A stretch of DNA of 64,000 bases from Escherichia coli (GTDB lineage Bacteria > Pseudomonadota > Gammaproteobacteria > Enterobacterales > Enterobacteriaceae). The stretch lies in the NCBI RefSeq assembly GCF_003334815.1, contig NZ_QOWO01000007.1. One strand, given 5' to 3'. Made by a program: the position numbers and the translations under genes. Under the pieces are notes generated by a model. The model was not told the origin of the DNA. It was given only the letters and a program-made list of their open reading frames with translations, and did not search any database. Below are positions 31,553 through 31,578 of this stretch, one piece after another; the first letter of the stretch is position 1; every line of letters starts with the position of its first letter.

Positions 31553-31578
<26 letters not shown>

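Follow-up and report, generated by a model that had tools for sequence, protein, structure and literature searches.

The tail-to-tail overlap of ycjG and mpaA in Escherichia coli: a probably incidental product of a compact convergent junction

The window, that is, the whole stretch of 64,000 nt of Escherichia coli K-12 DNA that was analyzed, contains ycjG and mpaA as convergent neighbors. The first gene, encoding L-Ala-D/L-Glu epimerase (321 aa), is located at 30613-31578 on the + strand and ends in the stop codon TAG at 31576-31578. The second gene, encoding murein tripeptide amidase (242 aa), is located at 31553-32281 on the - strand and ends in the stop codon TGA at 31555-31553 (tca on the + strand). 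An earlier note on this DNA had described a 26-nt tail-to-tail overlap between the two genes at 31553-31578, and exactly these coordinates were confirmed by the open reading frames and by the RefSeq annotation. The RefSeq coordinates were taken from an annotated record (strain ER1709) that was 100% identical across 30400-32700. Each of the two stop codons lies inside the coding sequence of the partner gene. In the shared 26 nt, codon positions 1, 2, and 3 of ycjG are opposite positions 1, 3, and 2 of mpaA.

Profile searches gave full-length matches to NCBIfam equivalogs, with 677 bits for YcjG and 479 bits for MpaA, so both frames are genuine protein-coding genes. The names of these profiles also bore out the statement of the earlier note that both enzymes act on murein tripeptide breakdown products. 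Structures have been solved for both proteins (1JPD for YcjG and 5HXD for MpaA). The overlap itself is an already known and ordinary feature, annotated in every E. coli record.

Many long convergent overlaps have been ascribed to artefactual 3' extensions (Pallejà et al. 2008, PMC2478687). An annotation or sequencing artefact at this locus, with one of the two stop codons being wrong, is nevertheless extremely improbable. Of 5426 complete E. coli genomes, 5415 contained a 111-nt segment spanning the ycjG/mpaA junction, and 5364 of these carried it with no more than one mismatch; the recurrence of the same sequence in 5415 complete genomes argues against an error. Stop codons are also independent of start-codon prediction, and the YcjG crystal chain 1JPD reaches the annotated last residue. 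Furthermore, the overlap is short (26 nt), and overlaps recur in other genera.

The region between mpaA and ycjY (32282-32615) is occupied in K-12 by the remnant of an SDR-family oxidoreductase gene (ymjC/ymjD, annotated as an incomplete NAD-dependent dehydratase). Other E. coli, for example Nissle, have an intact 639-nt SDR-family gene, and certain strains also encode an additional alpha/beta hydrolase. In E. coli Nissle 1917 (L002, 2654-3382), an internal stop interrupts mpaA, which is annotated as a pseudogene, and ycjG is intact. The ymjC remnant upstream of mpaA carries a promoter-like site, TCCACA-16-TAAAAT, at 32403-32430 on the - strand. This site, together with an mpaA RNA level (74 RPM) exceeding that of the upstream operon gene ycjY (21 RPM; Huang et al. 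2020, PMC7373196), suggests an internal mpaA promoter. A strong RNA 3' end with a Term-seq mean count of 27,317 (PMC7815308) was located at 32242 on the - strand (window 32232-32292), 39 nt into the mpaA open reading frame. It is found directly after a GC hairpin (CGCGCCGAACGCGGCGC), which is followed by AUUU, and it could mark attenuation or RNA processing early in mpaA.

Nine convergent junctions were found in the 64-kb window, and the coding sequences overlap at two of them, by 26 nt in ycjG/mpaA and by 4 nt in sieB/ydaF. E. coli has 663 overlapping adjacent gene pairs, 75 of which are convergent (Huvet and Stumpf 2014, PMC4161906). Among well-characterized prokaryotic overlaps, the convergent ones make up ~7%, and frameshifts at the 3' end or stop-codon mutations are a recognized source of overlaps (Pallejà et al. 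2008, PMC2478687). The ycjG/mpaA overlap is therefore no statistical oddity. The sieB (+) and ydaF (-) genes belong to the Rac prophage, and their 4-nt overlap, at 60837-60840, is also tail-to-tail. This pair is on the list of ExcludonFinder (Sanmartin 2025, PMC12288877), as is smrA/dgcM, which has a 20-nt spacer (~48223-48244).

For the comparison of junctions across Enterobacteriaceae, one genome per species was used and the best 80 loci with an MpaA relative (82-99% identity) were retained. Among these, ycjG and mpaA were convergent neighbors in all 79 loci having both genes. An overlap of 10 nt was present in 44 of the 79 loci, from Enterobacter, Klebsiella, Kluyvera, Leclercia, Lelliottia, Kosakonia, Trabulsiella, and others. 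The 26-nt overlap was present in 25 loci and was confined to Escherichia, Salmonella, and Citrobacter. Rarer overlaps had lengths of 4 nt (three loci), 33 nt (one locus), and 47 nt (one locus). Only five loci had a spacer, of 88-331 nt, the two genes abutting without a spacer in the other 74. A neighbor-joining tree of the concatenated proteins was midpoint-rooted on YcjG and MpaA themselves, with no outgroup from beyond Enterobacteriaceae; in this tree the 26-nt state formed a single clade, and 10-nt lineages were found everywhere else. From this distribution we infer that the 10-nt overlap is probably the ancestral state in Enterobacteriaceae.

The alignment of the junctions revealed a single 1-nt gap, common to every member of the 26-nt clade. 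On the ycjG strand, CTC TGA GG in the 10-nt state corresponds to CTC TAG G in the 26-nt state (CTT TAG G in E. coli), and the stop codon is TAG in place of TGA. The YcjG protein is unchanged by this indel; in mpaA, the frame changes after Pro235 and stays open for another 16 nt. In the mpaA sense, the 10-nt state ends in ...TGG CAG CCT CAG AGA TGA, and the 26-nt state in ...TGG CAT CCT AAA GAT GCA ATT CGC CCG TCG TGA. The old mpaA TGA, out of frame, is still present as GATGAAG in several Citrobacter. The arithmetic of overlap lengths also fits a 1-nt indel, with 4 and 10 nt in one phase, 26 and 47 nt in another, and a difference of 16 between 26 and 10, which is 1 modulo 3. Judging from the aligned junctions, a 1-nt deletion within the ycjG stop codon (31576-31578, + strand), which would have regenerated this stop and put mpaA out of its old frame, explains the 26-nt overlap. 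We take the direction of the change to have been deletion and not insertion. The lineage-specific MpaA tail K236-S242 (KDAIRPS), encoded at 31556-31576 on the - strand, would be the product of the frameshift.

The boundary between the two genes is still drifting. In three Citrobacter loci (L015, L017, and L018, ~3683-3708), one substitution changes CCT AGA to CCT TGA in the mpaA sense. As a result, MpaA loses 7 residues, the ycjG stop is destroyed, and YcjG gains 7 residues (…LHLKDASAKD). The overlap in these loci is again 26 nt, displaced by 21 nt. In one further locus (L024), the ycjG stop was lost alone, giving the 47-nt overlap.

Constraint on the shared bases was evaluated by comparing entropies in 8-codon windows for 22 sequences of the 26-nt clade. 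The second codon positions of mpaA had a mean entropy of 0.751 in the overlap versus 0.079 in the rest of the gene, the highest value of all 8-codon mpaA windows. The third positions of mpaA showed the opposite, with 0.067 in the overlap versus 1.079 elsewhere. For ycjG, the mean entropy of third positions was 0.823 in the overlap versus 1.106 elsewhere, which corresponds to the 10th percentile of 8-codon windows and is not significant. This entropy is only mildly low, and the idea that synonymous ycjG sites are under added constraint in the shared segment was rejected. At the protein level, the 22 sequences had 16 variants of the MpaA tail, and YcjG kept FTTGxLHL. The entropy pattern on the mpaA side and the 16 tails versus the conserved FTTGxLHL indicate that the shared bases evolve as coding sequence of ycjG and that the MpaA tail is an unconstrained passenger.

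Alternatively, the extended C-terminus of MpaA could have gained a function of its own, for example in stability or oligomer contacts, and the 26-nt state could be kept for the sake of the protein. The extended state persists across Escherichia, Salmonella, and most Citrobacter, and a terminal Ser and a K/R-D start of the tail recur. However, the recurring residues are exactly those fixed by the conserved YcjG codons opposite. The variety of tails also argues against such a function, as does the complete loss of the tail in the three Citrobacter loci. The last five MpaA residues are missing from PDB chain 5HXD (237 residues), and both the alignment with the Vibrio MpaA homologue and the NCBIfam profile PRK10602 stop short of the tail. 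Taken together, we consider a function of the tail very unlikely.

The ycjG/mpaA junction occurred in only a few discrete length states, as expected if interlocked coding sequences exclude insertions and deletions. The spacer between the convergent genes tyrR and tpx had, in the same loci, 34 different lengths, ranging from 34 to 1216 nt, and this shows that non-overlapping junctions are fluid. Within E. coli, 99% of the 5415 genomes had at most one mismatch in the 111-nt junction, and the corresponding values for three control segments of 111 nt were 93%, 39%, and 30%. The junction, the most conserved of the four segments, is consistent with a dual-coding constraint and, with one control at 93%, demands no other explanation.

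The earlier note had also stated that no terminator can lie between ycjG and mpaA. This statement held, and no convincing intrinsic terminator was detected near the junction on either strand. Two scans, one for the consensus and one for hairpins plus T-runs, gave only weak candidates within several hundred nt on both strands. A bidirectional terminator, with an A-run, a GC hairpin, and a T-run, was not found between or beside the stop codons of the E. coli junction. Two individual hairpins were inspected and rejected. The first, 3' of the ycjG stop (31579-31630) and followed by a T5 run, was no better than shuffled sequences (z = -0.6 to -0.7), and its T-run consists of conserved E-K-Y codons of mpaA. 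The second, past the mpaA stop (31470-31560, - strand), had a z of -2.6 in E. coli, but a comparison of 18 species gave neither a conserved nor a covarying counterpart (consensus -1.8 kcal/mol).

Among the loci with a spacer, L056 (spacer at 3727-4038), L058 (3730-4013), L060 (3727-4029), and L062 (3727-4057) belong to a Pluralibacter-like clade. A strong bidirectional terminator of the A-run/GC-hairpin/T-run type was present in the spacers of L056, L058, and L060, for example AAAAAAACCCGCCAGGCGAAAACGCGGCGGGCTTTTTTTT in L058, and L062 had GC-rich hairpins instead. The fifth spacer-bearing locus had a REP-like hairpin of -48 kcal/mol. The spacers of the Pluralibacter-like clade also carry a conserved open reading frame of 39 aa on the ycjG strand, with the pattern MxxWExExVxTQxxLxKRMIDTV and a hydrophobic tail, which had no match among NCBIfam profiles. 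L056 and L060 are titled Citrobacter sp. 18056 and Chryseobacterium sp. 18061, respectively. They are near-identical and cluster with Pluralibacter-like Enterobacteriaceae; the organism labels, Chryseobacterium above all, look wrong, or else the assemblies are contaminated.

Published transcriptome data were used to locate the actual end of the ycjG transcripts. Adams et al. (2021, PMC7815308, supplementary file 2) place a Rho termination region, in the + strand RNA that is antisense to mpaA, at U00096.3 1,390,286. With calibrated coordinates, this position is 31969 in the window, inside mpaA and 391 nt past the ycjG stop. The reads upstream and downstream of this peak were 47 and 14 without bicyclomycin, and 58 and 68 with bicyclomycin, with a Rho score of 3.94 and a p of 7e-5 (PMC7815308). 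Downstream of ycjG, only one stretch is clearly rich in C and poor in G (~31900-32050, with a C/G of 1.3-2.0 in the + RNA), and it contains the peak. The mpaA-antisense region thus combines a bicyclomycin-sensitive drop in coverage with untranslated RNA in which C exceeds G, the two marks of a Rho-dependent terminator. Under ycjG, the listing of Adams et al. (2021, PMC7815308) has no Term-seq 3' end and no Rho region.

Antisense reads and double-stranded RNA were reported for both genes. Sense and antisense RNA amounted to 51.2 and 10.0 RPM for ycjG, and to 73.9 and 17.6 RPM for mpaA (Huang et al. 2020, PMC7373196). Antisense RNA is thereby ~20% of sense RNA, and the neighboring genes have 3-13% antisense reads (PMC7373196). 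Double-stranded RNA captured by p19 reached 25-54 RPM for ycjG and 55-112 RPM for mpaA (PMC7373196). Two of the p19-captured RNase III duplexes map, after application of a coordinate offset, to mpaA at 32075-32098 and 32129-32153 (PMC7373196), which means that sense and antisense RNA pair ~500-575 nt beyond the ycjG stop. In the ExcludonFinder catalogue, ycjG-mpaA is one of 165 convergent excludons, tpx-ycjG one of 16 divergent excludons, and mpaA-ycjG-tpx one of three noncontiguous operons (Sanmartin 2025, PMC12288877). The ycjG-mpaA listings were present in at least 50% of the RNA-seq samples analyzed there. Of 370 convergent operons in E. coli, 276 have overlapping 3' ends, with a mean overlap of 286 nt (Conway et al. 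2014). On these published data, the overlapping ycjG/mpaA transcripts are real, documented, and typical.

The two genes are part of a block with alternating strands and pervasive read-through, namely tyrR(+) tpx(-) ycjG(+) mpaA(-). The whole tpx coding sequence (29988-30494) is among the 20 most abundant p19 dsRNA clusters in E. coli (S-116; PMC7373196). The tpx antisense RNA was ascribed to the tyrR 3' UTR, the ycjG 5' UTR, or read-through from tyrR to ycjG (Huang et al. 2020, PMC7373196).

A complete ycjG or mpaA mRNA must hold its own stop codon, and hence always includes the 26 shared nt. The terminator-less overlap could have been selected as a functional convergent excludon. In such a device, the two genes would limit each other through convergent transcription and the cutting of their paired 3' regions by RNase III, and this would adjust the ratio of two enzymes that act one after the other in murein peptide catabolism. 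The Rho region antisense to mpaA and the dsRNA and antisense reads over both genes are in line with this reading. The abutment kept in 74 of the 79 loci (among the best 80), the highly conserved junction in E. coli, and the cataloguing of the pair as a convergent excludon and within a noncontiguous operon, in at least 50% of RNA-seq samples, also fit. However, a coverage-based tool must call overlapping coding sequences whenever both are expressed, so the listing carries little information.

Several other results speak against a functional excludon, which we regard as unlikely. The PgrR regulon, in the RegulonDB excerpt quoted in PMC5934670, includes both ycjG and ycjY-ymjDC-mpaA. With a shared regulon and consecutive steps in one pathway, mutual exclusion would be counter-productive. 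Two rnc mutants had less, not more, sense RNA of ycjG and mpaA than the parent: it went from 51 to 39 and 33 RPM for ycjG, and from 74 to 42 and 22 RPM for mpaA (Huang et al. 2020, PMC7373196), under conditions in which PgrR was probably repressing both genes. Expression is weak (~50-75 RPM, compared with 660 RPM for tpx), and polymerase collisions should therefore be rare. Finally, the length of the overlap is labile among genera, and one clade has inserted a small open reading frame and a strong bidirectional terminator.

Overall, a functional coupling of ycjG and mpaA by the overlap looks unlikely. We also regard as unlikely the reading that the terminator-less abutment, which most Enterobacteriaceae retain, is a selected convergent excludon within the alternating-strand tyrR-tpx-ycjG-mpaA block, in which Rho-limited read-through and RNase III would set the enzyme ratio once PgrR repression is lifted. 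Excludon pairs have a higher synteny than other pairs (ExcludonFinder, PMC12288877) and, together with the abutment in 74 of 79 loci (among the best 80), this leaves room for selection on the arrangement. If coupling were true, ycjG/mpaA would add a further case to the known excludons, with an effect on peptidoglycan recycling.

We consider it likely that the overlap arose incidentally, through a 1-nt deletion at a convergent junction that is compact and frozen, that it is accompanied by generic Rho-limited read-through, and that no dedicated regulatory device is involved. In the ancestor of Enterobacteriaceae, ycjG and mpaA would already have been abutting, with interlocked stop codons, a 10-nt overlap, and the motif TCAGAGATGA. 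Later, the common ancestor of Escherichia, Salmonella, and Citrobacter would have lost one base in the ycjG stop, which turned TGA followed by G into TAG and left YcjG unchanged. The resulting shift of the mpaA frame would have placed the old TGA out of frame and carried translation 16 nt further into antisense ycjG, adding a 7-residue tail on which selection does not act. Any insertion or deletion in the interlocked coding sequences would harm one of the genes, and the junction would thereby be frozen in a few discrete states. The consequence for transcription is real but generic. Without room for an intrinsic terminator, ycjG transcripts enter mpaA in antisense until the Rho stop ~390 nt downstream, and mpaA transcripts enter ycjG in antisense. 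The outcome is low-level complementary RNA cut by RNase III, as at about three quarters of the E. coli convergent operon pairs. The anatomy of the overlap, the indel, and the lack of constraint on the MpaA tail are established, as is the missing intrinsic terminator; the Rho region, the dsRNA, and the antisense reads come from published work. A transcript overlap free of any selected function is the probable extension of these results.

The ycjG/mpaA overlap has little significance beyond bookkeeping. The present analysis adds an evolutionary account, in which the loss of one base in a stop codon would have converted a 10-nt overlap into a 26-nt overlap. It also adds the finding that the shared bases evolve as part of ycjG, the MpaA tail being a passenger, and a placement of the actual ycjG transcript end from the combined published Rho, dsRNA, and antisense data.

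Several known systems resemble the ycjG/mpaA pair. Bidirectional intrinsic terminators between convergent genes (Ju 2019) are present between ycjG and mpaA in L056, L058, and L060 of the related clade, but there is none at the junction in E. coli and most Enterobacteriaceae. Inefficiently terminated convergent operons (Conway 2014) and Rho-terminated antisense read-through (Peters 2012; Adams 2021) share with ycjG/mpaA a 3' read-through of a few hundred nt and a Rho-dependent end in a C-rich, untranslated stretch. However, inefficiently terminated operon pairs mostly have a spacer with a leaky terminator, whereas ycjG and mpaA have no spacer and an obligatory overlap of at least 26 nt.

Convergent excludons (Sesto 2013; ExcludonFinder, Sanmartin 2025) are, like ycjG and mpaA, neighbors on opposite strands with overlapping transcripts that are RNase III substrates. 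The classic excludons have opposing roles and mutually exclusive expression, whereas ycjG and mpaA encode consecutive steps of one pathway under one repressor. Overlapping transcripts are found for the pair, in published data only, and opposing or alternative functions are not. Bulk RNA shows joint expression of ycjG and mpaA (PMC7373196). In a noncontiguous operon (Sáenz-Lahoya 2019), genes of one strand are co-transcribed across a gene on the opposite strand, and mpaA-ycjG-tpx is so listed by ExcludonFinder (PMC12288877).

The closest match is to convergent overlaps that result when a stop codon is lost or displaced (Rogozin 2002; Pallejà 2008; Huvet and Stumpf 2014). These also involve real genes with interlocked 3' ends and a 3' frameshift, and, as in ycjG/mpaA, they have a weakly conserved extension and are shared only among closely related genera. 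All four hallmarks of a convergent overlap by 3' extension are found here: real genes, nested stops, a frameshift relative to orthologues, and a weakly constrained extension. Nothing essential distinguishes ycjG/mpaA from this class. Its neat detail is that the putative deletion inside the partner's stop codon regenerates a stop, so that only one of the two proteins is changed.
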